From the NCBI GenBank assembly GCA_963706635.1, contig OY970162.1, forward strand, positions 479,696-543,695: a DNA stretch of 64,000 nt, written 5' to 3'. A program made the translations under genes and the position numbers. Below, one piece after another: positions 2,157 through 60,697 of the stretch. Source of the DNA: an uncultured Thermoleophilaceae bacterium (GTDB taxonomy: Bacteria > Actinomycetota > Thermoleophilia > Solirubrobacterales > Thermoleophilaceae). The notes below the pieces were generated by a model. It ran no database searches. It saw only the letters and a list, made by a program, of their open reading frames with translations, and was not told where the DNA came from. Numbering within the stretch: the first letter of the stretch is position 1; each line of letters begins with the position of its first letter.

Positions 2157-2166
2157 CACCGCTTCC

Positions 2167-3552
2167 GTGACCGCTCGGGCCGAGCTCCCGATCAAGGCGC
2201 TCTCCGCGCTTCTGGTTGGCGCCGGGCTGGTGGTGGGCGTCGCCGCCGGCTTCAACCCGGCGCTCGCGGTGGTCCTCGCCGTGGCGCTCGGGTTCACGAT
2301 GCTCGTGATGTCCGACCTCGCGGTCGGGGTCACGCTGTTCGTCGCCATCTCGTTCCTCGACGTCCTTCCCTTCGGGGGCATCGCGGTCTCGGTGGCCAAG
2401 GTCACGGGCGCTCTCCTGGCCCTGTCCTGGCTCGCGCTGGTCGCCACCCGCAGCGCGGGAGGGAACGACTTCTTCGACTCGCATCCCACCCTCTCGTTCC
2501 TGCTGCTCGCCTTCCTCGGCTGGGTCACCCTCAGCGCGTCATGGGCCGAGTACTCGGGCGCGGCCTTCGAGTCGGTCTACCGCTTCGCCCTCAACCTCAT
2601 GCTGTTCCCCATCGTCTTCACGGCGATCCGCTCGCGCCGGCACATCGTCTGGGTCCTGGCCGCCTTTCTCGGCGGGGCGCTGGTCTCGGCGCTGTACGGC
2701 ATACTGGCGGCGCCGTCGAGCGACGCGATCGGCAGCAGCGACTTCAACCGTCTCAGCGGAGCCGGCCTCGACCCCAACGAGCTGGCCGCCCTGCTTGTGG
2801 CCTCGCTCGCGTTCGCGGCGGCTTTCGCCGCCCGCCGGGGGACCACCGTGCTGCGGCTGGTGGCCGTGGCCGCCGTGCCCCTCTGCCTTGCCGGCGTCCT
2901 GCTCAGCCTTTCCCGGGGCGGCCTGGTCGCCCTGACCACGGCGCTGCTCACCGCGATCGTCATCGGCGGCCGCTGGCGGCTGCCGGCGCTGACGCTGCTG
3001 CTGGTCGCGGGCCTCTCGGTGCTCGTCTACTTCGGCTCGATCGCCACCCCCGCCGAGCGCGACCACATCACCGCGAACAACGGCGGCACGGGCCGCACGA
3101 GCACGTGGAAGGTCGGCTGGCGGATGGTGGAGGCGAACGCGATCAAGGGCGTGGGAGGCGACAACTTCCGCACCTCGTCGATCCACTACCTGCTCGAGCC
3201 CGGCACGGTGCCGCGCTCGGACTTCATCGTCGAGCACCCGCACGTGGCGCACAACATGTACCTCGAGGTGCTCGCGGACCTCGGGATCGTCGGACTGACC
3301 CTGTTCCTAGCGATCATCGCCTTCGCCCTCAAGGCCGCGCTCGACGCTGCGCGAACGTTCCAAGGCTCCGGCGACGAGCGCATGGAGCTGCTCGCGCGGG
3401 CGCTGATCGTCGCCGTCGCGGCGCTGCTGGCGGCCGACTTCTTCCTCTCGGAGCAGTACAGCAAGCAGTTATGGCTGCTCCTGGCGCTGGCCCCGGCGAT
3501 GAGGGCCGTGGCGCAGCGCGGCGAAGCGAACCCTCCCGAGCCTGTCCCCTAG
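2167..3552 (+). CDS. O-antigen ligase / Wzy-family polysaccharide polymerase, polytopic membrane protein
   Basis: 461 aa, GTG start. About 10+ hydrophobic helices. Family-typical LSLSRGGLVALTTALL and a periplasmic loop with H-rich VEHPHVAHNMYLEVLADLGIVG. Confidence 0.75.
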   Translation: MTARAELPIKALSALLVGAGLVVGVAAGFNPALAVVLAVALGFTMLVMSDLAVGVTLFVAISFLDVLPFGGIAVSVAKVTGALLALSWLALVATRSAGGNDFFDSHPTLSFLLLAFLGWVTLSASWAEYSGAAFESVYRFALNLMLFPIVFTAIRSRRHIVWVLAAFLGGALVSALYGILAAPSSDAIGSSDFNRLSGAGLDPNELAALLVASLAFAAAFAARRGTTVLRLVAVAAVPLCLAGVLLSLSRGGLVALTTALLTAIVIGGRWRLPALTLLLVAGLSVLVYFGSIATPAERDHITANNGGTGRTSTWKVGWRMVEANAIKGVGGDNFRTSSIHYLLEPGTVPRSDFIVEHPHVAHNMYLEVLADLGIVGLTLFLAIIAFALKAALDAARTFQGSGDERMELLARALIVAVAALLAADFFLSEQYSKQLWLLLALAPAMRAVAQRGEANPPEPVP

Positions 3553-3560
3553 GGCCCGCG

Positions 3561-4685
3561 ATGGCGTCTCGCCCACGGGTCCTGATGCTGCTGGACCGCT
3601 TCACCACGGGTGGCGGCGGTGCCGAGGTGTTCACGGTCGGACTGTCCAAGGCACTGCGCGACCAGGGCTTCGACGTTCGCATCTGCACCACGCGGGGCGC
3701 CGTTGGCTTCCTGGTCGAGGAGGTCGAGGCCAGCGGGATCCCGCACGTGGTGCTTGGCCGCCGCGGCCGCTTCGACATGGCGCCGTTCGTGCGCCTCCGC
3801 AGGTACCTGCGCGCGGAGCGGATCGACGTGCTCCACAGCCACATGTTCGGATCGAACTTGTGGGGGAGCGTGATCGGAAAGGTCGCGCGAGTGCCGGTGC
3901 TCGTGGCCCATGAGCACACCTGGTCCTACGAGGGCCAGCCGATCCGGAAGTTCCTCGACGGCGAGCTGATCGGCCGCCTCACGGACGCCTTCGTGACGGT
4001 CTCGAACGCGAACAGGGAGCGGATGATCGGACTCGAGGGCGTCAACCCGGAGAAGGTCGTGGTGATCCCCACCGCCTACGTGCCGCGCACGTCCGAGCCC
4101 GAGCGCACCACGAGCGTCCGCGAGGAGCTCGGGATCCCCGACGACGCGCCCGTGGTCGGCACGATCGTCACGATGCGGCGGGAGAAGGCGCTGGACGTGC
4201 TCGTCGACGCGGTCGCCGAGCTCCGCGAGCGCGCGCCGAACGTGCACATGATCGTGGTCGGCAGCGGCGTCGGGCGAGAGGAGTGGCAGGCGTACTCCGA
4301 GGAGCGGGGCCTCGGCGACGTCGGTCACTGGGTGGGTTTCCGAACCGACATCGGCGCGCTGATCCACGCCTTCGACGTCGGGGTGCTCAGCTCCGACTGG
4401 GAGGGCTCGCCGCTGTTCGTCCTCGAGTCGATGGCCCACGGCACGGCCGTGGTCTGCACTGGAGTGGGGGGGCTGCCGGACGTGATCGAGGACGGAGTCT
4501 CGGGCCTCCTGGTCCCGCCGCGTGACCCCTCGGCGCTCGCCGATGCTCTGGCGAAGGTCATCGGCGACCCTCGGCTGAGGGCGAGGCTGGCCGCGGCCGC
4601 CACCGAGCGCCTGCCCGAGTTCTCGATGGATCGGATCGCGGCTCGCTTCGGCGGGCTCTACGAGGGTCTGCTCCGGCGCGGCTGA
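3561..4685 (+). CDS. glycosyltransferase family 4 (GT-B, GT1 superfamily)
   Basis: In-frame ATG at 3561 inside ORF 2541..4685 (MASRPRVLMLLDRFTTGGGGAEVF). EX7E region SDWEGSPLFVLESMAHGTAVVCTGVGGLPDVIEDGVSGLLVPP. Confidence 0.9.
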   Translation: MASRPRVLMLLDRFTTGGGGAEVFTVGLSKALRDQGFDVRICTTRGAVGFLVEEVEASGIPHVVLGRRGRFDMAPFVRLRRYLRAERIDVLHSHMFGSNLWGSVIGKVARVPVLVAHEHTWSYEGQPIRKFLDGELIGRLTDAFVTVSNANRERMIGLEGVNPEKVVVIPTAYVPRTSEPERTTSVREELGIPDDAPVVGTIVTMRREKALDVLVDAVAELRERAPNVHMIVVGSGVGREEWQAYSEERGLGDVGHWVGFRTDIGALIHAFDVGVLSSDWEGSPLFVLESMAHGTAVVCTGVGGLPDVIEDGVSGLLVPPRDPSALADALAKVIGDPRLRARLAAAATERLPEFSMDRIAARFGGLYEGLLRRG

Positions 4686-5788: not shown

Positions 5789-8371
5789 TCAGCGACGCAG
5801 GCGAACGCGGAGGGCTCGCGAGGGCAGCGCGCCGCGCGCGACCGCCCGGATGCGCAGCCGGCGCTTGCCGCGGAGGCCGCGCACCCGCCAGCGGGCGCGG
5901 CAGCGGCCCGAGGCCGACGCGGCGCGGGCGACCGTGCGCCAGTGACCGCGGACGAAGGTCTGGATTCGGACGCCGCGGACGGATGCCCGGATCCCGGTCG
6001 GCATCGACACAGCGAAGCGGAGGAGCGTACGGCGCCGGGCCGAGACCCGTAGCCGGAGCCGGCCACCGGGCTTGAACGAGGACTGGACGGCGCGGGACGG
6101 CTTGCTGCCGCCCGTGCTCAGGTGGTTCCAGAAGCGGACCGGGACCGAGGCCGATCCCTCCTGACCGTTGGTGTCGTGGGCGACCGCCTTGAGCGTGTGC
6201 TGGCCGTCCCCGTAGCCGCGGGTGTCGATCCGGCAGGACCAGGGGCTGTCGCTGTCGCTGCCTACCGGCCGGCCGTCGACGTAGAAGTCGACTCTGTCGA
6301 CGCTCCCCGCGCTCGAGACCGCGGCGCGGCAGCTGTCGCCCTCCAGCACCCCGGACACCTTCTGGTTGGCGGTGGGAGCGGCGAACGAGACCGTCGGCGG
6401 AGCGGGCGGCGGAGGCTCGGAAGCGGCGTTCTGGAAGTTCACGCCGACCTTGGCGGAGCCGCTCTGACCGGTCCTGTCGTAGGCGACGGCCTTGATGGTG
6501 TGGGCGCCGTCGGAGTAGGAGGTCGTGTCGACCACGCAGGAGTAGGGGGCGCTGCGCTCGGTGTTCACCGGCTGGTCGTCTACGAAGAACTCGACCCGAT
6601 CGATCGTCCCCGAGCTGGACACCGTGGCCGCGCAGTTCCCGGAGGCCTCGTCGAGTTGTCCGGAAACGGTCTGGCCGTCGCTCGGCTTGTCGAAGGAAAC
6701 GGTCGGGGGTGTCGGCGGCGGCGGCGGCGCGGGCGCCGTGACGGTCCAGCTGCGCGACGCGGGGGAGGCGTCGACGTTGCCCGCGGCGTCGGCGGCGCGG
6801 ACGGCGAAGCTGTGACCGCCGACGGCGAGGCCGGAGTAGGCCTTGGGCGAGCTGCAGGCGGCCCAGGCGCCGGAGTCGATCCGGCACTCGAAGCTCGCGC
6901 CGGCCTCGGAGGCGAAGGAGAAGCTGGCCGAGGTGGACTCGGTCGTGCCCGAGGGCCCGGAGGAGATGGTCGAGTCGGGGGCGGTCGTGTCGACTGTCCA
7001 GCCGCGGGAGGCGGGGGTCGCGTCGGCGTTGCCGACGGCGTCCGTGGCGCGGACCTCGAAGCTGTGGCTGCCGTCGGCGAGGCCGGAGTAGGCCTTGGGG
7101 GAGCTGCAGGCGCCCCAGGCGCCGCCGTCGATCCGGCACTCGAAGCTCGAACCCGACTCGCTGGAGCTGAAGCTGAAGCTGGCCGAGCTCGACGCGGTGG
7201 CTCCGGACGGGCCCGAGCCGATCGTGGTCTCCGGCGGGGTCGTGTCGGCGGGCGGCGGCGAGCCCGAGTCGAGCCGCGGACCGGGGACGGCGTCGGCGTA
7301 GGCGCCCATGAGGGTCCGGGCCGGGCTCGAGGACTGGAGGCGGTAGTCGCGGCCCGTCCGGTCGAGGTAGGCGGGGCTGAGGCTGTGGATGAGGTTGGAG
7401 CGAGAGATCGAGGAGCCGCAGTCGTCGTCCCCGCCCGAGGCCTGGTAGAGGAGCGAGTCCCGCATCCAGTCGTTGGTCCCGGGCGTGTAGCAGGCCAGCA
7501 CCGCGAAGCTGGCGGCGCCGTAGGTCGAGAGGATGTTGTTGTGGGCGTTGACGTTGTCGCTCCGGGTCGAGCCCTCGCCGGAGACCGTCACGCCGCGGCC
7601 GTTGCTGCTGCTCGCCGGGCAGTCCGTGCCCTGCGTGCAGGTCGCCCGCATGCCGTTCCCGTCGACCACGTTGTAGGAGAAGTCGACGCCGTCGCAGTCG
7701 GGATAGAACTGGATCCCGAAGGAGGCGTTGGCGTAGATCCAGTTGCCGCGGATGACGCCGTTCGTCATCGCGTTGTGGCAATAGATCCCGTGGTCGAACT
7801 GGCCGTTGCCGCCCACGTGGTGGATCTTGTTGTTCGTGATCTCGAGCCCGGTGGTGTTGGCGTAGTTGAGGATGCCCTGGAAGGACACGTACTGGGGCTG
7901 GCTCGTGATGTCGAGGTGGTCGAGCTTGCAGTTGTTGCAGGCGCCGACCTCGACGATCTTGCTGTTCTGCCCGTTCTGAACGCCGACGATGAAGAGGTCG
8001 TCCAGCACCAGGTCGTTGACCTTGAGCGTCATCGTTCCGCGGAGCGTGACCTGCTGGTAGCCGCCGTTGGCCCCGGCGGCCGGGTGGAGCCTCTGGCCGG
8101 CCTTGAAGTTCGAGAGGTTGCCGCCGAGGTCGTAGCTGCCGGCCGTGAGGCAGCCATCCTCGTAGGAGCCGAGCCGGGTCAGGAAGGCGCTGACCGACTC
8201 GCCGGAGTTGATCGTCTTGGTGCAGGTGACGGCCGCGGCGGCGGGCTGCGATCCGAAGGCCGACACGACCACCGCGGCCACGACGGCGGCGAGGAGAGTG
8301 CGGTGGATTCGGCTGAAGGTCGGGTACCCCACACTTGGGACATCGGGGTCCCACGTAAGGCCGGTGAACAT
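5789..8371 (-). CDS. large secreted multidomain protein: parallel beta-helix, 2 x 85-aa beta-sandwich repeats, 2 Ig-like modules, Arg-rich C-terminal module
   Basis: 860 aa. Signal peptide LLAAVVAAVVVSAFGSQPAAAA. Beta-helix repeats (NNKIHHVGGNGQFDHGIYCHN..NWIYANASFGIQFYPD). Repeats are described under the repeat features. Exact start uncertain. Confidence 0.75.
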   Translation of the reverse strand: MFTGLTWDPDVPSVGYPTFSRIHRTLLAAVVAAVVVSAFGSQPAAAAVTCTKTINSGESVSAFLTRLGSYEDGCLTAGSYDLGGNLSNFKAGQRLHPAAGANGGYQQVTLRGTMTLKVNDLVLDDLFIVGVQNGQNSKIVEVGACNNCKLDHLDITSQPQYVSFQGILNYANTTGLEITNNKIHHVGGNGQFDHGIYCHNAMTNGVIRGNWIYANASFGIQFYPDCDGVDFSYNVVDGNGMRATCTQGTDCPASSSNGRGVTVSGEGSTRSDNVNAHNNILSTYGAASFAVLACYTPGTNDWMRDSLLYQASGGDDDCGSSISRSNLIHSLSPAYLDRTGRDYRLQSSSPARTLMGAYADAVPGPRLDSGSPPPADTTPPETTIGSGPSGATASSSASFSFSSSESGSSFECRIDGGAWGACSSPKAYSGLADGSHSFEVRATDAVGNADATPASRGWTVDTTAPDSTISSGPSGTTESTSASFSFASEAGASFECRIDSGAWAACSSPKAYSGLAVGGHSFAVRAADAAGNVDASPASRSWTVTAPAPPPPPTPPTVSFDKPSDGQTVSGQLDEASGNCAATVSSSGTIDRVEFFVDDQPVNTERSAPYSCVVDTTSYSDGAHTIKAVAYDRTGQSGSAKVGVNFQNAASEPPPPAPPTVSFAAPTANQKVSGVLEGDSCRAAVSSAGSVDRVDFYVDGRPVGSDSDSPWSCRIDTRGYGDGQHTLKAVAHDTNGQEGSASVPVRFWNHLSTGGSKPSRAVQSSFKPGGRLRLRVSARRRTLLRFAVSMPTGIRASVRGVRIQTFVRGHWRTVARAASASGRCRARWRVRGLRGKRRLRIRAVARGALPSRALRVRLRR
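6125..6715 (-). repeat. intragenic pair of diverged ~100-aa Ig-like modules
   Basis: PPTVSFDKPSDGQTVSG..IDRVEFFVDDQPV..YSDGAHTIKAVAYDRTGQSGSAKVGVNFQN versus PPTVSFAAPTANQKVSG..VDRVDFYVDGRPV..YGDGQHTLKAVAHDTNGQEGSASVPVRFWN. Confidence 0.6.
6737..7246 (-). repeat. intragenic tandem repeat, 2 x 255 bp (85-aa modules)
   Basis: DTTPPETTIGSGPSGATASSSASFSFSSSESGSSFECRIDGGAWGACSSPKAYSGLADGSHSFEVRATDAVGNADATPASRGWTV is followed by DTTAPDSTISSGPSGTTESTSASFSFASEAGASFECRIDSGAWAACSSPKAYSGLAVGGHSFAVRAADAAGNVDASPASRSWTV. The shadow ORFs at 6843 and 7095 are also similar to each other, reflecting the repeat on the opposite strand. Confidence 0.8.
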
Positions 8372-25750: not shown

Positions 25751-27375
25751 GCCGATACCAGCGCGGCGACACGTTCGGCGGCGGCCCCAGTGACGCCTTC
25801 GCCACCAGCACGCTCGGCTCGCCCGAGGCGATCTGGCGGGCGAGCGCCGCGGCGAAGTTCGCGCCCAGGCCGTCGACCGCGAACGAGCGGACCCCGAAGC
25901 TCGCCGCGAGCGCCGCGAAGTCCGGCGTGTGCAGGTCGACCCCCTCGCGCTCGAGGCCGCGGCGCTCCTGGTCGAAGCGCAGCATGCCGTAGCCGCCGTC
26001 GTCGACGATCACCGCGGTGAGGGGGATTCGCTCCTGGGCGGCGGCAGCCAGCTCGCCGGCGGCATATAGGAAGCCGCCGTCTCCGGACACGCTGACCACG
26101 GGTCCGGCGCCGGCGAGCGCCGCGCCGAGCGCCTGGGGGAAGGCGCAGCCGAGCGTGCCCCAGCCGAGCGGGTAGGTGAGCTGCCGCGGCCCCGGAGGGT
26201 CGTGAAAGGCGCCGAGCCAGTAGCCGGGGATGCACATGTCGCAGACCACCACGGCGTCATCGGGGAGGGCGCCGGCGAAGGAGTCGAGGAACTCGATCGC
26301 CTGCGGATCGGTCTGCTCGAGCTCGCGGCGGATGCCCGCGTTCAGGTCGCGCAGCCGGCGGGTCAGCGCCTCCAGCCCGCCGCGCGGCTCGATCCGGTGG
26401 GCGAGGAGCTCGGTCGCCTCGCGCGCGTCGGCCTCCACCAGGACGTCCGGGAGATAGGCCTTGGCGGCGTCCTCCGCGTCCACGTTGATCGCCACCAGGT
26501 GGGGTGGTTGCGGCATCTTCCAGTTCTGCGTCATCGGGCCGTCGAAGTCGGTCCCGATCGCCACCACCAGGTCGGCGTCGTCCCAGAGCGCGCCCACCTC
26601 GGGAACATGTGGCGGGGCGCCGACCAGGCAGGGATGGTCGGGCGGCAGCAGCCCGCGAGCCGAGTAGGTCGTGATCACCGGGGCGACGAGACGCTCGGCA
26701 AGCTGGGCGATCGCCTCGCCGGCGCCGGCCTGAAGCGCGCCGCCGCCGGCCCAGATCAGCGGCCGCCGCGAGGGCTCGATCCGCTCCGCGGCCGCGACGA
26801 CCCGGTCGCGGGCCGGCGGCTCCGAGGCAGGCGGCTCCGGCACCGGCGCCGGCTCCTCGACCTCGGCCGAGAGCAGGTCGGTGGGCACCTCGAGGTAGAC
26901 GGGCCGGCGGGAGGGCCGCAGTGCCAGCCGCGCCGCCTCGCTCACCGCGGCGGCCAGCGACGCCGCCGAGCGGACGCGCAGCACGCCCTTCGTGACCGGA
27001 TCGAACATGGCGCCCTGGTCGGTGGCCTCGTGCAGCGAGGCGCGCCAGACGCCGGGGCGGCGCACGGAGGTCGGGACGTCGGTGGCGATGACCAGCAGCG
27101 GCTGCCGGGAGGCCCAGGCCTCGCCCACGGCCGCGAGCGTGTTGGCCGCGCCCGGCCCGGTCGTGGTCAGCGCCACCCCAACGCCGGCCGCTCGCGCGCG
27201 CGTAGCCGTCGCCGGCGTAGGCGGCCGTCTGCTCGTGGCGCACGCCGACCAGCCGGATTCCCGACTCCCCGAGGGCGTGCCACAGCGCGAGGTTGTGGAC
27301 GCCCGGCAGCCCGAAGGCGACCTCGACGCCCTCGCCCTCGAGCGCCCGGACGATGAGCTGTGCTCCTGTCACCAT
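25743..27375 (-). CDS. thiamine-diphosphate-dependent enzyme (acetolactate synthase large-subunit-like), one apparent frameshift ~27176-27200
   Basis: N-terminal MVTGAQLIVRALEGEGVEVAFGLPGVHNLALWHAL..HEQTAAYAGDGYARA is in the frame of 26257..27402. The rest (TTTGPGAANTLAAVGEAW...GDGGFLYAAGELAAAAQERIPLTAVIVDDGGYGML) is in the frame of 25743..27176. Confidence 0.8.
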
Positions 27376-27383
27376 TGCGGGGG

Positions 27384-28568
27384 ATGCGGGAACTGGCGCC
27401 ACCGCTCGACGGTCTTCGCGTGCTCGATCTCTCCCGGGTGCTCGCCGGCCCCTACTGCACGATGCTGCTGGCGGACCTCGGCGCCGACGTGGTGAAGGTG
27501 GAGCGGCCGGGCAGCGGCGACGAGACGCGCGGCTGGGGTCCGCCCTTCGCCGGCGGGGAGTCGGCCTACTACCTGTCGGTCAACCGCAGCAAGCGCAGCT
27601 GCGCCATCGACCTCTCGCATCCCGACGGGCGCGCCCTCGCGCTGGATCTCTGCGCCGGGGCCGACGTGGTCGTGGAGAACTTCAGGCTCGGCGGCGCCGA
27701 CCGCCTGGGCGTGGGCTACGACCAGGTCGTGGAGCGCAACCCCGAGGTCGTCTACTGCTCCATATCCGGATTCGGGTCCGAGCGCCGGCCGCACGGACGG
27801 CCGGCGTACGACTTCGTCGCCCAGGCCGAGGCCGGCCTGATGTCGATCACCGGGCCGCCCGAGGGGCCCGCGTACAAGGTAGGCGTCGCGCTTGTGGACG
27901 TGCTCGCCGGCGTCCACGCGGCGGTCGGCGTGCTGGCCGCCGTCCAGGGCGGCGGCCCGCGGCGGATCGAGGTGCCGCTGCTCGACGCCGGACTCGCGGG
28001 GCTCGTGAACGTCGCGCAGAACGCTCTCGTCACTGGACACGATCCTGAGCGGCATGGCAACGCCCACCCCAACATCGTGCCCTACCAGGACTTTGCGACG
28101 GCCTCCGGCCGGATCGCGGTCGCGGCGCCCAACGACGGGCTGTTCGCCGACCTCTGCGCCGCCATAGGCCGACCTGAGCTCGCCGACGACGCGCGCTTCC
28201 GTACCAACGCCGATCGGGTCGAGAGCCGCGCCGAGCTGATCCCCGAGCTCGATGCCGTGTTCGCGACGCGCTCCGCCGACGAGTGGGTCCAGGTGCTGGA
28301 CGCGGCAGGCGTCCCGGTGGGCAAGGTCAGGACGGTGCCCGAGGCTCTCGACGCGGCAGCCGACGCGGGCCGCCCCGCCACCGTCCGCGTGCAGCACCTG
28401 ACCGCCGGCGCGCTCGAGCTGGTGGGCTCGCCGATCTGGGGTGCCGGCGCGCCCGCCACGCCGCCGCCGCTCCTCGGCGAGCACACGGCCGAGGTGCTGC
28501 GCGAGCTCGGCCGGAGCGAGAACGAGATCGTGGAGCTGTCGGTGCTCGGCGCGGTCCAGCTCGCCTAG
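27384..28568 (+). CDS. CoA-transferase family III (CaiB/BaiF-type)
   Basis: MRELAPPLDGLRVLDLSRVLAGPYCTMLLADLGADVVKVERPGSGDETRGWGPP. The stop TAG (28566-28568) is the first three bases of MITE copy 1. Confidence 0.9.
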   Translation: MRELAPPLDGLRVLDLSRVLAGPYCTMLLADLGADVVKVERPGSGDETRGWGPPFAGGESAYYLSVNRSKRSCAIDLSHPDGRALALDLCAGADVVVENFRLGGADRLGVGYDQVVERNPEVVYCSISGFGSERRPHGRPAYDFVAQAEAGLMSITGPPEGPAYKVGVALVDVLAGVHAAVGVLAAVQGGGPRRIEVPLLDAGLAGLVNVAQNALVTGHDPERHGNAHPNIVPYQDFATASGRIAVAAPNDGLFADLCAAIGRPELADDARFRTNADRVESRAELIPELDAVFATRSADEWVQVLDAAGVPVGKVRTVPEALDAAADAGRPATVRVQHLTAGALELVGSPIWGAGAPATPPPLLGEHTAEVLRELGRSENEIVELSVLGAVQLA

Positions 28569-28735
28569 ATGATTGATTCCGCGGTCGTGTGTGCGCGGGG
28601 GCGCACGGGGCCGAGCTGGGCGGGGGAAGCAGGGCGAAGCCGATACACGGGTGTATCGGCGAGCCCGATGACCCCGATCCAGCGACGGTATCCGTGCGTC
28701 ATCCGCGTGCGCGGGGTCGTGGAATCAGTCATCTA
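28566..28735 (+). mobile_element. MITE-like palindromic element, copy 1 (170 bp)
   Basis: TAGATGATTGATTCCGCGG...CGTGGAATCAGTCATCTA imperfect terminal inverted repeats. Internal hairpins GTGCGC-GGGG-GCGCAC and CCGATACAC-GG-GTGTATCGG. Near-identical to copies at 34379, 46841 (rc) and 59580 (rc). Confidence 0.85.
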
Positions 28736-29335
28736 ATGGGGCTCGTCCGAGTCGGACGCGGGCGGCCGGTCCTCCTCGGCGAGTGAGGTGATCGTGAGCG
28801 TCCCGCGGGCCGCGTCCTCGAGCACCTCGGTCGCCTCCTCGCCGCTGCGGGCGTAGAGCTCGACCAGCATGTGGATCACGATCCGGTCTTCCTCGTGCTT
28901 GTGGAAGCGGACGTGCGTGAAGAACTCGCGCGTGCCGTGGTCGCCGAAGGCCGCGAACGCCAGCGAGTCGGCCGCCTCCGGGCCGGAGCAGGTCTCGACC
29001 TGGTCGCCGTCGACCGTGACCGTGCACGAGGCGACGAACGGCGAGCCGGTGACCATCCGCTCCCAGCGGTCCTCGACCGCCTCGATGCGGCTGATGCGAC
29101 GCCCGTTCTCCTCGTAGAACGTGAGGCTCAGGTGCGGCTGGTCGTGCAGGCAGTCGAGGCACTGCACCACCGCCTCCTGGACCTCCTCGACGGGATCCAC
29201 GGCTTCGCCGGTGCTGGCGTCGACCTTGAGGATCCCCTCGTAGTGGAGCTGGACCTCGAGGTTCTGCGACCAGCAGCGGTAGCAGCGGAGCCAGCTCGAT
29301 TGGGTGCCGACGGAGTCCGGCGCTGAGCCTTCCAT
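28733..29335 (-). CDS. hypothetical acidic protein with N-terminal CxxC...CxxC zinc-ribbon-like motif
   Basis: 200 aa. CYRC (18-21) and CLDC (59-62). Acidic C-terminus EEDRPPASDSDEPH. The stop is the terminal CTA of MITE copy 1. Confidence 0.5.
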   Translation of the reverse strand: MEGSAPDSVGTQSSWLRCYRCWSQNLEVQLHYEGILKVDASTGEAVDPVEEVQEAVVQCLDCLHDQPHLSLTFYEENGRRISRIEAVEDRWERMVTGSPFVASCTVTVDGDQVETCSGPEAADSLAFAAFGDHGTREFFTHVRFHKHEEDRIVIHMLVELYARSGEEATEVLEDAARGTLTITSLAEEDRPPASDSDEPH

Positions 29336-33292: not shown

Positions 33293-34381
33293 GTGCGAAG
33301 AGGCGTCAAGTCGGCGCTCGCGCAGGCCGATGCACTCCGTGAAGTGCGACTTGGCCTGAATTCCTCTGTGACCGCCTCCACCCGCCTCGGTGCGGTTGCC
33401 TCCCTGCTCGCCGCCGTAGGCGGGCTTCTCATCTGGACTCTCGACCCCGGAAGCGTGCGCTCGCCGCTCATCGCGGGTGCCGGGATAGCCGGGGCGGCGC
33501 TGGTCGGTGGGGCCTACGTGTTCCTCCCCTGGCAGCGGCTGCCCCGCCGGGCCATCCTCGTCCCCCTGGTCCTCCTGGGCGTGCCCGGCATCGCCATCGC
33601 CGCCTACAACACCGGCGGCATGTCCAGCCCTTACACCTACTACTTCGTCTTCATCCCGTTCACGGCGGCGCTGATCGCGACCCGCTGGGAGTTGACCCTC
33701 TCCGTGGCCGCCTGCACGCTCGGGGCCGCGGCCCCGCTCGCCTATGACGGGGCGCCCACCTCGAACGTCGTCCTGCTCCTCTTCCTCGTCACGATCTCCG
33801 GCGCCACGGGGATCGTCTTCCACCGCTCCCAGGAGCACGTCCGCGCGAGCGATGCCCGCCTGCGCGACATGGCCCTTCGCGACTCCCTCACGAACGTGGC
33901 CAACCGCCGCGCGCTCGAGGTGCTCGCGGCCAACGTGCTGCTCGCGGCGGCGCGCGACGACCGCAGCCTCAGCGTCTGTTACCTGGACGTCGATCACTTC
34001 AAGGAGGTCAACGACACCTTCGGCCACGCCGTGGGCGATCGCGTCCTCAAGGCCCTGGCGCGCAGCACCAAGAAGGTACTTCGAGACGGCGACCTCGTCG
34101 GCCGGCTCGGCGGCGACGAGTTCGCGGTCGTGCTGCCCGGTGCAGGGTCCGACCAGGGCCGCGTCGTCGCCGACCGTCTCGCCTCGGCCTTCGCTGACGA
34201 GGTCGAGGCGGACAGGGGCCTGCCGGCGGTCACCGTCAGCGTGGGCCGGGCCACCTTCCCGCGCGACGGCCGCAACTGGGAGGAGCTCCTCCACGCGGCC
34301 GACGGGCGGCTCCTGAAGCTCAAGCAGACGCGGGAAGCGGACGAGCTGACCGTCGCAGTGCTGGGCCCGAGCGCGGCCTAG
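33293..34381 (+). CDS. membrane-anchored diguanylate cyclase (GGDEF)
   Basis: 362 aa. About 5-6 N-terminal TM helices. RDSLTNVANRRAL...YLDVDHFKEVNDTFGHAVGD...RLGGDEFAVVL. The stop TAG belongs to MITE copy 2. Confidence 0.9.
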   Translation: MRRGVKSALAQADALREVRLGLNSSVTASTRLGAVASLLAAVGGLLIWTLDPGSVRSPLIAGAGIAGAALVGGAYVFLPWQRLPRRAILVPLVLLGVPGIAIAAYNTGGMSSPYTYYFVFIPFTAALIATRWELTLSVAACTLGAAAPLAYDGAPTSNVVLLLFLVTISGATGIVFHRSQEHVRASDARLRDMALRDSLTNVANRRALEVLAANVLLAAARDDRSLSVCYLDVDHFKEVNDTFGHAVGDRVLKALARSTKKVLRDGDLVGRLGGDEFAVVLPGAGSDQGRVVADRLASAFADEVEADRGLPAVTVSVGRATFPRDGRNWEELLHAADGRLLKLKQTREADELTVAVLGPSAA

Positions 34382-34548
34382 ATGATTGATTCCGCGGCCG
34401 CGTGTGCGCGGGGGCGCACGGGACCGAGCTGGGCGGGGGAAGCAGGGCGAAGCCGATACACGGGTGTATCGGCGAGCCCGATGACCCCGATCCAGCGACG
34501 GTAACCGTGCGTCATCCGTGTACCCGGGGTCGTGGAATCAGTCATCTA
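34379..34548 (+). mobile_element. MITE-like palindromic element, copy 2 (170 bp)
   Basis: Same orientation as copy 1. Differs by a handful of substitutions. Confidence 0.85.
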
Positions 34549-46559: not shown

Positions 46560-46843
46560 GCTCGACCGTTGAGCTGCCGAAGACGACCGACCCCGGCAGC
46601 GGACTCGGGGGCGAGTGGCGAGTCATCGTGCTCAACGACGACCACAACACGTTCGAGGGCGTTGCCCGCGCCCTCTCGGCGACGCTGCCGGGTGTCAGCT
46701 ACGACCAGGGCATGTCGCTGGCCAACAAGATCCACAACAGCGGCCAGGCGATCGTCTGGACCGGCGCGCGGGAGCCCGCCGAGCTCTACTGGGAGCAGCT
46801 CCGGGGCACCGGCCTGACCATGGCGCCGCTGGAGCGCGGCTAG
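46556..46843 (+). CDS. clpS: ATP-dependent Clp protease adaptor ClpS
   Basis: 95 aa. WRVIVLNDDHNTFEGVARALSATLPGVSYDQGMSLANKIHNSGQAIV. The stop TAG is the first triplet of MITE copy 3. Confidence 0.85.
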   Translation: MSSTVELPKTTDPGSGLGGEWRVIVLNDDHNTFEGVARALSATLPGVSYDQGMSLANKIHNSGQAIVWTGAREPAELYWEQLRGTGLTMAPLERG

Positions 46844-47009
46844 ATGACTGATTCCACGACCCCGCGTACGCGGATGACGCACGGATACCGTCGCTGGATC
46901 GGGGTCATCGGGCTCGCCGATAACCCGTGTATCGGCTTCGCCCTGCTTCCCCCGCCCAGCTCGGTCCCGTGCGCCCCCGCGCACACGCGGCCGCGGAATC
47001 AATCATCTA
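46841..47009 (-). mobile_element. MITE-like palindromic element, copy 3 (169 bp, opposite orientation)
   Basis: TAGATGACTGATTCCACG...CCGCGGAATCAATCATCTA. One-nt deletion in the central hairpin relative to the other copies. Confidence 0.85.
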
Positions 47010-47327
47010 GGGAGCGGCGGGGGCTTCGAGGGTGGCGCCGCTGCCCACGATCTCGTGGAACGTCGGCAGCAGCGGCACCTGGTAGTAGCCGCTGAGCTCC
47101 GTGCGCGCCTCCGCCACCGTCTCGGAGTACCAGTAGCGCTCGAAGTCGGCCTTGGCCGGGAAGACCGCGTGCTGGATGAAGTCGAGCCGTCCCTCGCTCG
47201 CGCGGTAGAAGGCCCACGAGGTGGCGCCGTAGTCGAGCGCCGCCTCCGCGACCGGGAGCCAGCCCTCGGCGAACTTGTCGCCCCGGAACGGGTTGGCCGC
47301 CCAGCGGACCTCCGCCAGGATCGGCAT
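47007..47327 (-). CDS. hypothetical 106-aa protein translationally coupled to ccr
   Basis: MPILAEVRWAANPFRGDKFAEGWLPVAEAALDYGATSWAFYRASEGRLDFIQHAVFPAKADFERYWYSETV... Its ATG overlaps the ccr stop (ATGA at 47325-47329). Its stop is the terminal CTA of MITE copy 3. Confidence 0.6.
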   Translation of the reverse strand: MPILAEVRWAANPFRGDKFAEGWLPVAEAALDYGATSWAFYRASEGRLDFIQHAVFPAKADFERYWYSETVAEARTELSGYYQVPLLPTFHEIVGSGATLEAPAAP

Positions 47328-48623: not shown

Positions 48624-49583
48624 GTGTCGTTGCTCGAGAGGCTGGGCGTTGAGCTGCCGGTGGTGCAGGCCGGGATGGGCGGGGGGCTCGCCCGCCACGA
48701 GCTGGCGGCGGCCGTCTCGGAGGCCGGCGGCCTCGGCACGATCGGCATCCTCGACCCGCCGCTCCTGCGGCGTGAGCTGAGCGCCGCCCGGGCCGCCACG
48801 AGTAAGCCCGTGGCCGTGAACCTGCTGCTGCCGTTCACCCGCCGCGGACACCTCGAGCTGGCGGCCGAGGCGGACGTCGTGGTCACGTTCTGGGGCGCGC
48901 CCCAGCGGCCGACCGGACGCCCCTGGCTGCACCAGTGCGGCTCGCTGGAGGAGGCGCTCGACGCCCATGCGGCCGGAGCGGACGGAGTGATCGTGCAGGG
49001 GGTCGAGGCCGGAGGCCACGTCCGCGGCGCGGGGCCAGGGCTCGAGCTGCTCGAGCGCGCCCGAGCCGCCCTGCCGGACGGCTACCCGGTGTGGTCGGCC
49101 GGTGGCGTCGCCGATGCGACCGACGCCCGCACGGCGCTGGAGGCGGGCGCGGAGGCGGTCGTGGCGGGAACGCGCTTCCTGCTCAGCGACGAGAGCCGGG
49201 CCCACCCGGAGTACAAGCGCAGGGCGCTGGCGGGTCGCGAGACCCTGTTGACCGAGCTGTTCGGCGCCGGCTGGCCGGCGCTCCATCGCGTGCTCCCCAA
49301 CGCCGCCACCGAGCGCTGGCTCTCCGCGGACGGGGCGATGCCCGGCTGGATCGGGGCGCTCCATCGGGCCGCCTCGCCGCTGCTCGCGCGCACGCCGCAG
49401 AGCATGCACGCGCGGGCGGCGCCCTACGCGCGCCCCTCGCAGCCGCTCCTGAGTCCCCAGGCCGCGAATGACGACGGTCCCGAGTCGCTGGTCGAGGCGG
49501 GACCGCTCTACGCGGGCGAGACGGTGGCCAGAATCGACTCGCTGAGGCCGGCCGGGGCCCTTACGCGCGAGCTCGCCGGCTAG
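48624..49583 (+). CDS. nitronate monooxygenase / NPD-family FMN oxidoreductase (FabK-like)
   Basis: LLERLGVELPVVQAGMGGGLARHELAAAVSEAGGLGTIG ... VIVQGVEAGGH. Start is GTG 48624 or TTG 48630. Confidence 0.8.
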   Translation: MSLLERLGVELPVVQAGMGGGLARHELAAAVSEAGGLGTIGILDPPLLRRELSAARAATSKPVAVNLLLPFTRRGHLELAAEADVVVTFWGAPQRPTGRPWLHQCGSLEEALDAHAAGADGVIVQGVEAGGHVRGAGPGLELLERARAALPDGYPVWSAGGVADATDARTALEAGAEAVVAGTRFLLSDESRAHPEYKRRALAGRETLLTELFGAGWPALHRVLPNAATERWLSADGAMPGWIGALHRAASPLLARTPQSMHARAAPYARPSQPLLSPQAANDDGPESLVEAGPLYAGETVARIDSLRPAGALTRELAG

Positions 49584-52443: not shown

Positions 52444-53735
52444 ATGGAAGCAGCGACCCCCCTCAGACAGGCCCACGTAACCACCGCCGGCGACCGGCTC
52501 GACGATCCACGACCTGAGCGTCGAGGACGAGGCCGCCGCGCGGCTCGTCCGCGAGCGGGAGCAGTCCGGCGACGACCCGGTCAAGACCGTCGCCGACGCG
52601 ATCGAGATCGGCGCCCGCGTGCTCGACCGCGAGCAGGCCGCCGCCAACGCGGAGTACGTGCGCACGGAGTTCGAGAAGACCGCGCAGGAGATCGACCGCC
52701 AGTTCTCCGACAAGGCGCGCACGGTCGCCGAGCACTTCGGCAAGAAGGTCGACGAGGTCTTCGGCGAGGAGAGCGGCCAGCTCGCCAAGGAGTTCGAGAA
52801 GCTGTTCTCCGACGGCAGCACGGCGTCGGTGCAGAACCGGGTGCGCGAGCTCGTTGGCGAGGCCATGACCAAGTCGCGCGAGGACCTCGTGCGCCAGTTC
52901 TCGGCCGGCGACGGCCGCAACCCGCTCGCCGATTTCAAGGCCAGCACGGTTCGCGAGCTGCGCATCATGGCCGACCGGCTCCAGCAGATGCAGGAGCAGG
53001 TTGTCGAGCTGCGCGCCGAGAAGGAGAAGCTGGAGGAGCTCGACGCCGAGCGCGAGCGCGGCAGCGCCAAGGGGCGCTCGTTCGAGGAGGAGGTGGCCGA
53101 GGCGGTCGACGCGATCGCGCTGGCGCAGGGCGACGTCGCGGATGCGGTGGGCGATCTCAAGGGCGCCACCGGCAAGACCGGCGACGTCGTCGTCTCCATC
53201 GACGCCTGCAACGGACCCGCGCGCGGCCGCATCGTGTTCGAGGCCAAGAACGCCAAGCTCAGCTCACCCGAGACGCGCAGGGAGCTCGCCCGCGGGATGC
53301 GCGAGCGCGACGCCGACTACGGCGGTGCTCGTCGTGCCCGCCGAGGAGAAGGTGCCGGCCAAGCTCACGCAGCTGCGCGAGTACGAGGGCGACAAGCTCG
53401 TGGTCGTCCACGATCCCGAGGACGGCCGCGCCCTCGCGCTGGAGCTCGGCTACCGACTGGCCCGTGCGCGCGTGCTGATGAAGAGCGCGGGCGCCGAGGG
53501 CGTCGACGCCGGAGCGGTACGCGAGGCCGTCGAGCGGGCCCTCGCCGAGATCGAGGACGTTCGCAAGGTCAAGAGCCAGCTCACCGGGGCCAAGACCGGC
53601 ATCGACAACGCCTACGAGATCGTCGAGGGGATCGCCGAGCGCGTGCGCGCCCGCCTGGCCGAGGTGGAGATGCTCGCTGCGGGCGGCCAGGCCGGCGGAG
53701 CTGGACGTAGACGACGACCCCGCATACGCGGGTGA
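52444..53735 (+). CDS. coiled-coil protein with C-terminal PD-(D/E)xK nuclease-like domain (DUF2130-like); two apparent frameshifts (~52505, ~53320)
   Basis: Long coiled coil (ELRAEKEKLEELDAERERGSAKGRSFEEEVAEAV). GKTGDVVVSID...GRIVFEAKNAK...DADYAVLVVPAEEKVP. The 3' end lies inside degenerate MITE copy 5. Confidence 0.5.
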
Positions 53736-53839
53736 CGCACCGGCTGGATCGGGTCACGGGCTCGCCGATAACCGCGATCGGCTTCGCCGCTCCCCGCCAG
53801 CTCGGTCCCGTGCCCCCGCGCACACGCGGCGCGGATCTA
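53708..53839 (-). mobile_element. MITE-like element, copy 5: short (about 132 bp) diverged variant
   Basis: TAGACGACGACCCCGCATACGCGGGTGACGCACCGG...GCACACGCGGCGCGGATCTA aligns with copies 3 and 4. It lacks about 9-10 nt of the outer TIR at both ends and has internal indels. Confidence 0.65.
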
Positions 53840-53846
53840 CTTCGAG

Positions 53847-54285
53847 CTACGGCAGCAGACCGGTTGTTGGAGTCGCGCCGCGCGTTCGTGATGTTGAGCT
53901 TGGCCGGCGCGATCTCCTTGGGCACCGCGACCGACGAGCCGGCACGCACCTCGTACTGACCGCGCGGCAGCGTCTTCTGGATCGTCGCCGTGTCCTCGGG
54001 CTGGACCGGGCCGATGCGCTCCTTCACGGTGTCGCCCTCGAGCGTCACGGTGTGCGCCTCGTCGGTCTGGTTCGAGATCGTGATCAGCACCGGTCCGGCG
54101 CCTACCTTGTTCGGCGAGACAGTGACCTTCTCCGTCTGTATCACCCCGGTCAGCTCGATCGGCACCGGGGGCCGGGGTTTGTTCTCGAAATCTTCCCCGC
54201 CGCAACCAGACGCCAGAGCCACAAGCGTCCCTGCCGCGAGGAAGGCGATGGCACCCGACCAGCGAGTCTTCCCTGTCGCCTTCAT
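53847..54285 (-). CDS. lipoprotein, possibly cupredoxin-like beta-sandwich (apparent frameshift near the 3' end)
   Basis: MKATGKTRWSGAIAFLAAGTLVALASGCGG lipobox. VTVSPNKVGAGPVLITISNQTDEAHTVTLEG..LPRGQYEV. In the given frame it reads through into the MITE. A 1-nt shift gives ...SNNGLLP-stop at 53847. Confidence 0.5.
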
Positions 54286-54301
54286 CCCTCGGCCGCGAAC
54301 C

Positions 54302-55329
54302 CTAACCGAACCACACGGACCTTCGCGCGGATAGAAGCGTGTCCAGCGACGACTGGATGCGGCCGCGCACGTCCTCGGCGATTGCCTGGACGAGTGCGAG
54401 ATCGTCGGCGTCGTCGGGTCCATAGCTCGACAGATCAACGGGCTCGAGGAAGCGGATCTTGAACTTCGCGGGGAGGTACATGAGCGCGGCGGCCAGGCCG
54501 AAGTGCGGGAAGGCGTGGTTGACCGGGAAGTAGATGAGTCCGGTCAGTCGTTGCAGCAGCGGGACGTGGGCGAAGATCGGCATCGCCTCCTCGGCGCCGA
54601 CGACCGCGATCGGCACGATCGGGACGCCCGCCTTGATCGCGGTGCGCACGAAGCCGCCGCGACCGAAGCGCCGCAGGCGGTAGCGCTGCCAGTAGAGCTT
54701 GCGCGATCCCTTCTGGCCCTCGGGGAAGACGATGGCGAGCCGGCCCTCGTCGCCGAGCAGCCGCTGCGCGTTGGCCGTGTGCGCGGCCACGAGGCCGAGC
54801 TTGTTGGTCAGCATGCCGACGCCCGGATAGCCCTTGAACCAGTGCTCGCCGAGCATGTACAGCGGCCGAGGCTCGGCGTGCTCGTGGCGGATCGCCTGCA
54901 TGATCATCGGCGCGTCCGGAGGGAGCGCGCCGGAGTGGTTCGACACGAGCAGCGCGCCGCCGTCCGAGGGCACGTTCTCGACGCCCTCCTGCTCGACCCG
55001 GAACCAGTAGCGGTAGTAGAAGTCGAGCACCGGCTCCATCAGCTCGAACACCCGCTGCGAGCGGCCCCAGTCGTCGAGCTGGCGTGAGCCGTCGGCCGGC
55101 GGAATCAGCTCGTTCAGGTCGCGCGGGGAGGGCGGCGACGGCTCGTCCGGCCGCGGCAGCCCGAGGTCGTCGTGGCCCGGCTCGAAGGCCTTGCCGGCGC
55201 CCGCGGCGTCTCCGCGCCGGCTCCGACCGAGAGCGAGCCTCCGAGCAGCGGGCTGTCCTCGCTCAGGCCCCGGCGGCTGGTGGGTCGCTTGCGTGCAGGG
55301 TCGCGCGTGCTGTCCCTCCCTCGGGGCAC
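54302..55329 (-). CDS. lysophospholipid (1-acyl-glycerol-3-phosphate) acyltransferase family protein (apparent frameshift ~55195)
   Basis: YYRYWFRVEQEGVENVPSDGGALLVSNHSGALPPD, VFPEGQKG, VPIVPIAVVG. The N-terminal Pro/acidic extension continues upstream without a start codon. The ATG at 55329 is in another frame. Confidence 0.7.
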
Positions 55330-59270: not shown

Positions 59271-59273
59271 CGC

Positions 59274-59582
59274 GTGGCGCGCGTCGCGCTGCTCTGTCCC
59301 GACCTGCTGTTCGGCTCGAAGCTCCGTAGCGCGCTCGCCGACGGCGGGCACGAGGTGGTCGCGCCGGGCTCGCCGGCCGACCTGCTGGTGGTGGATCTCA
59401 CCGCCGACGTCGACGAGCGCCTCGCCGAGGCCGGCGCGGCCGGCCTGCCCACGCTCGCCTTCTACTCGCACGTCGAGCAGGACGTGCGCCGCAAGGCGGA
59501 GGAGGCGGGCATCGACCGCGTCGTGCCCCGCTCGCGCATGGCCCGCGAGGCGGCCGCGCTGGTCGACGGCATGCTCGCCTAG
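59274..59582 (+). CDS. hypothetical 102-aa protein (flavodoxin/receiver-like alpha/beta pattern)
   Basis: GTG start 4 nt after the upstream stop. VALLCPDLLFGSKLRSAL..DLLVVDLTADVDERL..PTLAFYSHVEQDV. The stop TAG belongs to MITE copy 4. Confidence 0.45.
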   Translation: MARVALLCPDLLFGSKLRSALADGGHEVVAPGSPADLLVVDLTADVDERLAEAGAAGLPTLAFYSHVEQDVRRKAEEAGIDRVVPRSRMAREAAALVDGMLA

Positions 59583-59749
59583 ATGACTGATTCCACGACC
59601 CCGCATACGCGGATGACGCACGGATACCGTCGCTGGATCGGGGTCATCGGGCTCGCCGATACGCCCGTGTATCGGCGTCGCCCTGCTTCCCCCGCCCAGC
59701 TCGGTCCCGTGCGCCCCCGCGCACACGCGGCCGCGGAATCAATCATCTA
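59580..59749 (-). mobile_element. MITE-like palindromic element, copy 4 (170 bp, same orientation as copy 3)
   Basis: TAGATGACTGATTCCACGACCCCGCATACGCGG...GCGGCCGCGGAATCAATCATCTA. Confidence 0.85.
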
Positions 59750-60697
59750 GCGAGCGACGCTGAAGTCGAAGGCGCGGTCGACGTCCGGCTTGCGCTCGAG
59801 GATCCCGAAGCGCGCGTCCCATGCCGCCCACTCGTCGAGCACGCGACGATGGAGCACCAGCGGCGGGCTGAAGGCGGGGGAGACCGCGGCGAGCTGTGCC
59901 CGGACGAGGCCCTCGTCGGAGTTGCCCGCGCGGGCGATGTCGCGGATCGCCGGATCCGGATGGCGCAGCGACCTCGCGCACGCCGTCGGCCACCGCCGCC
60001 ACCACCGCGTCGATCGCCGCCCGGCGCCGCTTCAGGATCTTGCGCGTCGTGAACAGGACCACCTCCGGATAGCGCGGAGCGCCGTAGTCGTCGACGCGGA
60101 ACTCGCGTGTCTGCACTCCGCGCCGCCGCAGAACGACTCCCTCCGCGTTCCAGAAGGCCGGCACTCCCTGCACGCGCCGGTCGATCAGGCTGGGTACCGC
60201 GCAGAAGCCGATCGTGACCAGGTGGGCGCGCTTCACGTCGCCGCCGTCGTCCTGCATCACGGCCCGGAGCACGGCCGGGTCGGAGGGCAGGCCGGAGACG
60301 CCTACGCGGCGGCCCTCGAGATCGCGCGGGCGGCGTATGTCGTCGCGGGCGATGATCGCGGCCAGCGGGCGTTGCACGAGCGCGCCCACGCCGACGAAGT
60401 CACGCCCGCGCTCGCGCGCCAGGCCGAGGTCGTGGATGTCGAGCACGGCCATGTCGGCGCGCCCGCCGGCAAGCAGCTTGAGCGAGTCGGGCGCGGAGCC
60501 CGGGGGGCGGATCCGCAGTCGGATCCCGTGCCTGCGGTCGTAGCCCTTGCGGACGGCCGCGTAGATGGGGGCGTGCACGGCGTTGGGCTTGAAGTCGAGC
60601 GCGAGCGTGATCCGCTGGTCGCCGCTGCCGCCGCCCCCGCCGCAGCCGCCGCCAGGAGGGCCGCCAGCAGCGGAACAAGGGCAGGGGCGCGCCGCAC
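59747..60697 (-). CDS. NMT1/THI5-like ABC-type substrate-binding lipoprotein (two apparent frameshifts ~59965 and ~60650)
   Basis: GTG 60697. Signal RRAPALVPLLAALLA, then (shift) GCGGGGG lipobox region. ITLALDFKPNAVHAPIYAAVRKGYDRRHGIRLRIRPPG. The C-terminal 70 aa (..AIRDIARAGNSDEGLVRAQL..DFSVAR-stop) lie in another frame and end on the MITE CTA. Confidence 0.65.

Follow-up and report, generated by a model that had tools for sequence, protein, structure and literature searches.

The 64,000-nucleotide stretch of Thermoleophilaceae DNA analysed here (the window) carries a family of short repeats that is very probably a non-autonomous family resembling MITEs (miniature inverted-repeat transposable elements), with the termini of a clade of IS982 insertion sequences (ISs), a TA target-site duplication, and a C-TA-G, stop-codon target. 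An earlier reading of the sequence by itself (the original prediction) had already proposed a MITE-like, non-autonomous element, and this part of it stands: the termini are held in common with autonomous ISs and the element has no coding capacity of its own.

BLASTN of the window with its positions 28566-28735 placed four full copies and a fifth, shorter one where the original prediction had put them, and returned nothing further above noise:

28566..28735, + strand: MITE copy 1, consisting of a TA (28566-67), the 166-nt element (28568-28733) and a second TA (28734-35); target C-TA-A.
34379..34548, + strand: MITE copy 2, with flanks C-TA...TA-G.
46841..47009, - strand: MITE copy 3, which at 169 nt lacks one nucleotide of the apical stem; flanks C-TA...TA-G.
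59580..59749, - strand: MITE copy 4, with flanks C-TA...TA-G and a clean orthologous empty site.
53708..53839, - strand: a degenerate relative, the fifth copy (c5), 132 nt.

Copy 3 is 97.1% identical to copy 1, and copies 2 and 4 are 95.9% identical each. The deletion in copy 3 is the single 1-nt indel that had been noticed among the full copies, and both internal perfect hairpins that had been quoted for the element are present in it. The element is short (166 nt plus the TA duplication) and no open reading frame (ORF) is kept in frame among its members. Without the duplication it reads GATGATTGATTCC...GGAATCAGTCATC, and its 18-nt terminus TAGATGAYTGATTCCRCG, also written TAGATGAYTGATTCC, occurs eight times in the window (G+C 71.9%), at both ends of all four full copies, against a mean of 0.03 matches in shuffled sequence. 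The strongly folding, G-rich strand is the + strand for copy 1 and the - strand for copy 3. A check for an earlier description, which the original prediction had called for, found no Rfam match (Rfam 15; whole window at gathering thresholds, and none at E <= 1 for the element), no match to the MITE on annotated plasmids, no previous account in the literature searched, and no paper there linking MITEs with Thermoleophilia.

We scanned for the terminus in one genome per species and obtained at least 119 DNA stretches, on which the locus counts given below rest. Among the matches listed, these stretches are almost all from metagenome-assembled genomes (MAGs) of Thermoleophilia (Solirubrobacterales, Gaiellales and Thermoleophilaceae), and the nearest relative of the MITE, at 89%, lies in a Thermoleophilaceae MAG (L085); the closest protein homologues likewise bear the name Thermoleophilaceae. 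In the same matches inverted pairs of the terminus are of two kinds, small elements of 42-373 bp and large pairs of 986-1016 bp, with two longer IS variants of 1125 and 1235 bp. At least 17 large pairs are complete; all start TA-GATGATTGATTCC and each encloses a single ORF of 289-306 aa, which is 289 aa in the 986-1016-bp type. The 18-nt termini of the MITE are identical to the termini of these IS copies, so that the autonomous element with the same terminal repeats that had been sought is found, at least 17 times, in related Thermoleophilia genomes. As a side observation, the terminus was seen on only five IMG/VR viral contigs (L131-L135).

The enclosed transposase matches Pfam DDE_Tnp_1 and scores 160.8 and 136.4 bits against the NCBIfam model NF033520, 'IS982 family transposase', which has a cutoff of 130; the same protein reaches about 30 bits against the IS5 and IS4 models, whose cutoffs are 110 or more. 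Its nearest annotated relatives, at 46-50% amino acid identity, are called 'IS982 family transposase' and are found on Streptomyces, Kitasatospora and Rhodococcus plasmids. The ends of the annotated Streptomyces and Rhodococcus elements read C-TAGATGATCAATTCC... and C-TAGATGGTTGATTCC..., a terminus of the type TAGATGRTYRATTCC with a C...G border, and two annotated IS982 elements that we inspected have the ends C-TAGATGATCAATTCCAAGG and C-TAGATGGTTGATTCCTTG and close with ...CATCTA-G. Since annotated plasmid IS982 elements have the same kind of ends, the terminus type belongs to an actinobacterial IS982 clade, and the 18-19-nt terminal repeats of the element are those of this clade. One IS982-type pair (L112 552-3056, 2505 bp), with 95-97% amino acid identity to the L014 transposase, carries an insertion of about 1.5 kb, the transposase breaking off at residue ~103 and resuming at ~101.

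Over the left ~105 nt, subfamilies of ~170 bp, to which the window copies belong, and of ~205 bp are homologous in the same orientation (E as low as 5e-10), with the strand-specific motifs AAGGACGCAGGG (~58) and CGAGGACGC (~100) flanking the apical hairpin (e.g. L034 4368-4534 and L032 4192-4394); in many members an ATG stands 4-5 nt past CGAGGACGC, and no peptide is conserved in frame there. By eye, the left ~115 nt looked collinear with the 5' leader and start codon of the IS (AGCAGGGCGAAG, CGATGGACGCCGA), a candidate that we rejected when hidden Markov model (HMM) searches in both directions were non-significant. The L055 locus holds, at 3364-3633, a true internal-deletion derivative of an IS982-type IS, 270 bp long, with significant matches to the leader (E = 4e-25) and the tail (E = 1e-14), so deletion derivatives do arise. 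There are also mini-elements of 42-86 bp (L030 2403-2444, L012 7766-7817, L039 2724-2777, L057 5895-5958 and L008 3937-4022), which consist of hardly more than both terminal repeats with a few bases between them.

Several points weigh against derivation of the MITE from, and its mobilisation by, IS982-type elements. No significant homology between the ~170-bp or ~205-bp interiors and the IS was found by nhmmer in either direction, and only the termini are therefore demonstrably common to these families and the IS; the link between MITE and IS is only ~19 nt per end. The inverted repeats described in a 2020 IS982 review start 5'-AC(N)6T(N)5TT (PMC7335449), whereas those found here read GATGATTGATTCC, or TAGATG... 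when the TA is included. Finally, tblastn found no IS982-type transposase within the 64-kb window; the statement of the original prediction that the window has no transposase gene agrees with this, IS982 and IS630 types being the two that were searched for. We infer that an IS982-type transposase, with its gene in another part of the source genome, may have mobilised the copies in trans.

The target and its duplication can be read from the ends of the elements and from sites that lack them. Among the matches listed, the TA at both ends never varies, nor do the inner G and C of the termini, whereas the base outside the TA, on the inward-reading left side, is C at 145 of 169 ends, T at 12, G at 8 and A at 4; this pattern excludes duplications of 3 bp and 4 bp. 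Orthologues of the 103-aa gene to the left of copy 4 are 92% and 91% identical to it, and on three JGI contigs (L128, L129 and L130) the orthologue has exactly four bases, C-TA-G, in common with a convergent gene. These empty sites read ...GCC-TA-GCG..., against ...GCC-TA-[166 nt]-TA-GCG... at copy 4; at greater length, L130 has catgctcgcc-TA-gcgcgcga and the window catgctcgcc-TA-[GATGAC...ATCATC]-TA-gcgagcga. A single TA is thus present at all three empty sites and two flank copy 4, the two states differing by exactly the element and one TA, which bears out both the TA duplication that the original prediction had suspected and the search for empty sites that it had proposed. Both protein C-termini are kept at copy 4, ...GMLA* as in L130 and ...FSVAR* where the orthologues have ...FGVAR* or ...FGIAR*.

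The convergent gene pair around copy 1 likewise occurs without the element, separated by a 1-nt spacer in L120 and a 62-nt spacer in L121 and L122, and both genes of the pair stop at the codon where they stop in the window. For the IS itself, a paralogous empty site is available in Rhodococcus: R. koreensis has TTGGC-TA-GGTGAG where R. ruber has TTGGC-TA-[IS]-TA-GGTGAG. Two leads were dropped here. An apparent pair of abutting elements with one common TA in L008 matched over only 8 nt, and there are no abutting MITE pairs in the data; a paper on CTAG in Halobacterium concerns CTAG methylation and is not relevant.

The full copies in the window are closely tied to stop codons. Each of the four is placed between convergent genes that G+C at codon positions supports, and 7 of the 8 window termini are the TAG stop of a gene reading into the element (supported by G+C at third codon positions, GC3); three of the four copies are at a C-TA-G common to two convergent genes as overlapping stops. 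The seven genes are:

27360..28568, + strand: CaiB/BaiF-type CoA-transferase gene (PF02515), its TAG at the left terminus of copy 1; orthologues stop at that same codon.
28733..29335, - strand: gene for a 200-aa protein, its TAG at the right terminus of copy 1; the L120, L122 and L055 orthologues end at the same residue.
33293..34381, + strand: GGDEF-domain gene, its TAG at the left terminus of copy 2.
46562..46843, + strand: ClpS-like gene, its TAG at the left-hand terminus (in the window) of copy 3.
47007..47324, - strand: small gene, its TAG at the right-hand terminus of copy 3; GC3 is 0.97 in its last 300 nt.
59271..59582, + strand: gene for the 103-aa protein, its TAG at the left-hand terminus of copy 4; C-terminus ...GMLA*.
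59747..60031, - strand: convergent gene, its TAG at the right-hand terminus of copy 4; C-terminus ...FSVAR*.

The terminus, TAG-A-TGA-T-TGA, offers stops in all three frames, and 48 of the 54 genes that read inward among the matches listed stop at the TAG, with 5 and 1 stopping at the two inner TGAs. This distribution argues that insertions hit pre-existing stops and do not truncate genes. An element that lands in the TA of such a stop restores TAG on both sides: read inward, each end brings a G after the duplicated TA, so that TAG is rebuilt at either end and the flanking proteins are unchanged. Copies would then build up at the 3' ends of genes, because in a genome of 72% G+C the C-TA-G sites that tolerate an insertion would mostly be stops, where the insertion would be neutral. 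CTAG is strongly under-represented in the window (26 sites, 85.7 expected); 15 of the 26 are real stops, 7 of these 15 being carried by MITEs. With both flanks called, 38 elements among the matches listed divide into 19 between convergent, 16 between co-directional and 3 between divergent genes.

Several side observations concern the same sites. TAG ends 20 of the 40 GC3-supported ORFs in the window (17 end in TGA and 3 in TAA), which is high for a genome of 72% G+C, and 7 of the 20 are carried by MITEs. At 49580-49583 an empty C-TA-G is the stop of GC3-supported ORFs on both strands, like the sites of copies 3 and 4, and is a potential free target. A ~205-bp MITE occupies an orthologous position in L032 (4192-4394) and L060 (1551-1756), with the element 83% and the coding flanks 71-73% identical; either an insertion has been kept there for a long time or one stop codon has been hit repeatedly. 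The flanking genes are ordinary ones (CoA-transferase, GGDEF, ClpS, with a MeaB gene nearby).

Both strands were folded, as the original prediction had recommended, and the whole element proved to be a hairpin whose strands are unequal. Copy 1 at its full 170 nt forms one hairpin with dG -126.3 kcal/mol (z = -11.9), against -85.9 (z = -6.8) for the opposite strand. That prediction had put the similarity of the inverted ends at about 44 nt, but the fold takes in the whole 170 nt. The difference in dG between strands arises from wobble pairs, of which each of the four full copies has 8-13 G.U on the forward strand and 0 on the reverse. Relatives of ~170 bp in other genomes show the same asymmetry, down to ~70% identity, whereas the ~205-bp subfamilies for the most part do not.

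Covariation was assessed in an alignment of 23 members. Changes on both sides were seen in 26 of the 49 consensus pairs, a level of covariation that none of 500 shuffles reached, and 91% of cells were paired as against 31-39% when the partners were slid. Compensatory changes keep the hairpin intact across genomes. The pairs that deviate from Watson-Crick are themselves biased: there are 107 G.U to 18 A.C when the consensus structure is used and 175 to 8 when each member is folded by itself, and with 48 'other' 1x1 mismatches it is A.C specifically that is depleted. The four window copies, present in both orientations, obey the same rule in their private substitutions: of seven transitions at Watson-Crick pairs, six lead to G.U and one to A.C. 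Replication-strand skew was rejected as the source of the G.U asymmetry, since the window has no GC-skew switch and copies stand in both orientations. A constraint on the duplex or on a cruciform would penalise G.T and A.C equally; the constraint is therefore on a single strand, most plausibly on the single-stranded form of one strand as RNA.

It is conceivable, though we would not favour it, that the family is a mobile element whose hairpin is in addition selected on one strand for a function of its own, most likely as RNA. The depletion of A.C, its recurrence in private substitutions and the independence of the asymmetry from replication skew speak for this, as do stems that covary while the one-strand motifs AAGGACGCAGGG (~position 58) and CGAGGACGC (~position 100) are conserved, the fifth copy, which has lost both terminal-repeat cores and kept the hairpin with its asymmetry, and the location of half of the elements between convergent genes among the matches listed. 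A number of results oppose such a role in host mRNA. Relative to co-directional neighbours there is no bias in orientation, the strong strand being the mRNA strand in 5 cases and the opposite in 8; around copy 1 we found neither a sigma-70-like promoter nor a U-tract terminator, and the element has no Rfam family. Terminators without a U-tract do occur in Actinobacteria. The asymmetry is largely missing from the ~205-bp subfamilies, template switching can homogenise palindromes with no selection involved, and the members of the family share ancestry, so the covariation and G.U counts are not independent events.

Roles that might be put forward for the hairpin, all of them speculative, are a bidirectional terminator or insulator, a protector or stabiliser of 3' ends between convergent genes, and a regulator of the transposase. 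The broader proposal, which we regard as tentative at best, is that once the element has inserted between convergent genes with a common stop tetranucleotide its hairpin would work as RNA, for instance as a portable bidirectional terminator/insulator or 3'-end stabiliser; an undescribed IS982 clade that targets TA in C-TA-G would be defined as well. The strand-specific, covarying hairpin is nevertheless a testable lead on whether selection at the RNA level shapes bacterial MITEs.

For the fifth copy (53714-53835, -) identity is 78% with copy 1 and 78-83% with the four full copies; close relatives of it are confined to the family. It lacks the core of both terminal repeats, some 8-9 nt per end, and is probably immobile; the hairpin and the G.U asymmetry are retained (dG -78.7 vs -60.5 kcal/mol). 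A + strand gene extends 28 nt into it. This gene shifts frame near 53240-53280 (ORFs 52619..53710 and 53001..53735), either because it is a pseudogene or through an indel error, the latter of which would suggest a long-read assembly with residual indels. On the - strand, a lipoprotein-like ORF without a Pfam match (53581-54438) stays open through all 132 nt (44 codons) of the copy and through 42 Arg-rich codons beyond, which is either read-through from lost element stops or a frameshift artefact. We considered the fifth copy as an in-frame translated insert and make no such claim: the neighbouring + gene is frameshifted near 53270, so that assembly indels or pseudogenes are equally likely, and the extension is Arg-rich junk.

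A TA duplication and a C-TA-G target, both of which we confirm here, are the classic signature of IS630 elements, and the original prediction had accordingly suggested a parent of the IS630/Tc1-mariner type. That the MITE derives from, and is mobilised by, an IS630/Tc1-mariner transposase is nonetheless very improbable. IS630-type transposases (Pfam DDE_3 and helix-turn-helix domains) are present in four of the fetched loci, but these elements have unrelated terminal repeats, C-TA-GTGGTCGCTCCGCTTAATTCG in L014 and C-TA-GTGTCCTGATGCGTTAATTCGGT in L066 (also given as C-TA-GTGTCCTGATGCG... and C-TA-GTGGTCGCTCCGC...), unlike GATGATTGATTCC, and in neither locus does the MITE-type terminal-repeat pair contain the IS630-type ORF. 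All 17 complete pairs among the matches listed enclose an IS982-type transposase and none an IS630-type (DDE_3) one, and tblastn found no IS630-type match in the window.

The two kinds of element meet directly at these loci. In L014 an IS982-type element (3340-4336) begins on the TA that ends an IS630-type element (2149-3342), and in L066 the TA at the junction is common to an IS630-type element (6418-7551) and an IS982-type element that runs from 7549; among the loci there was no second copy of the L014 IS630-type element to serve as a paralogous empty site. The same C-TA-G sites are evidently contested by two IS families that are unrelated. Because both use C-TA-G, the inference from TA to IS630 was reasonable but wrong; TA/CTAG targeting in common with IS630 is convergence in target choice and not family membership. 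The termini place the element with IS982, and the family assignment is corrected from IS630 to IS982, with a target and a duplication supplied for the actinobacterial IS982 clade.

For the MITE family with IS982-clade termini, these results describe a way in which a mobile element can be harmless in a gene-dense genome of high G+C: it inserts in a stop codon and rebuilds it on both sides, even at a stop tetranucleotide common to two convergent genes. They also help the annotation of Thermoleophilia, a little-studied class of soil bacteria represented mainly by MAGs, by accounting for a repeat that recurs at gene ends without annotation and on which short-read assemblies are likely to break.

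Abundant intergenic hairpin repeats, often at the 3' ends of genes and with transcripts that fold, are familiar from the Correia elements of Neisseria and the REP/BIME sequences of enterobacteria. Correia elements duplicate TA, and REP sequences are moved by RAYT enzymes without a duplication; the sequences of both are unrelated to the window family, and we know of no stop-codon-sharing insertion in either. Our copies resemble them in being intergenic, at gene 3' ends and strongly folded. It is very improbable, however, that they are an immobile host repeat (of the REP/BIME kind, or else a terminator or small-RNA gene in repeated copies) propagated by duplication or by an enzyme of the RAYT type: an occupied site and its empty orthologues are distinguished by exactly the element and one TA, an autonomous IS has identical termini, and a 170-nt unit with 18-19-nt terminal inverted repeats has no match in Rfam. 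REP and REPIN units are palindromes of 20-40 nt, are associated with a Y1 transposase and make no duplication, whereas the family has 170 nt, a TA duplication and the termini of a DDE IS; no search for a RAYT gene was made. IS630 elements and their MITEs resemble the family in behaviour, with a TA duplication, a preference for C-TA-G and small, hairpin-forming non-autonomous derivatives, and differ from the window family in their unrelated transposase family and terminal repeats.

The autonomous counterparts of the MITE, with the same transposase family, are the actinobacterial IS982 elements, namely ISCef2 and ISCef3 and the PGAP-annotated elements of Streptomyces and Rhodococcus, which at ~1 kb and with coding capacity are unlike the MITE itself. 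According to the accessible part of the 2020 IS982 review (PMC7335449), ISCef2 and ISCef3, two actinobacterial members in ISfinder, have DR = 0, direct repeats vary in length over the family and the mode of transposition is listed as unknown; that part makes no mention of MITEs, TA duplication or CTAG. The 2-bp TA duplication is within the range of direct repeats that it gives for IS982 elements (0-8 bp; IS1592 has DR = 2).

MITEs are well known, and one derived from IS982 has already been described in Cardinium (PMC9769881): a ~240-bp element from ISCca4 that is thought to be maintained by intact parental copies. Like the window family, it is short and non-coding, with inverted repeats very similar to those of an IS982-family IS (PMC9769881). 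Its host, in contrast, is an endosymbiont from the Bacteroidota; for ISCca4 the table in PMC7335449 gives direct repeats of 6 bp, as against the TA duplication found here; no C-TA-G or stop-codon targeting is reported for it (PMC9769881); and the interior of the window family has no detectable homology to its IS. Worth noting beside that precedent are an IS982 clade that targets TA in C-TA-G and inserts in stop codons without changing the protein, and a strand-specific, covarying hairpin.

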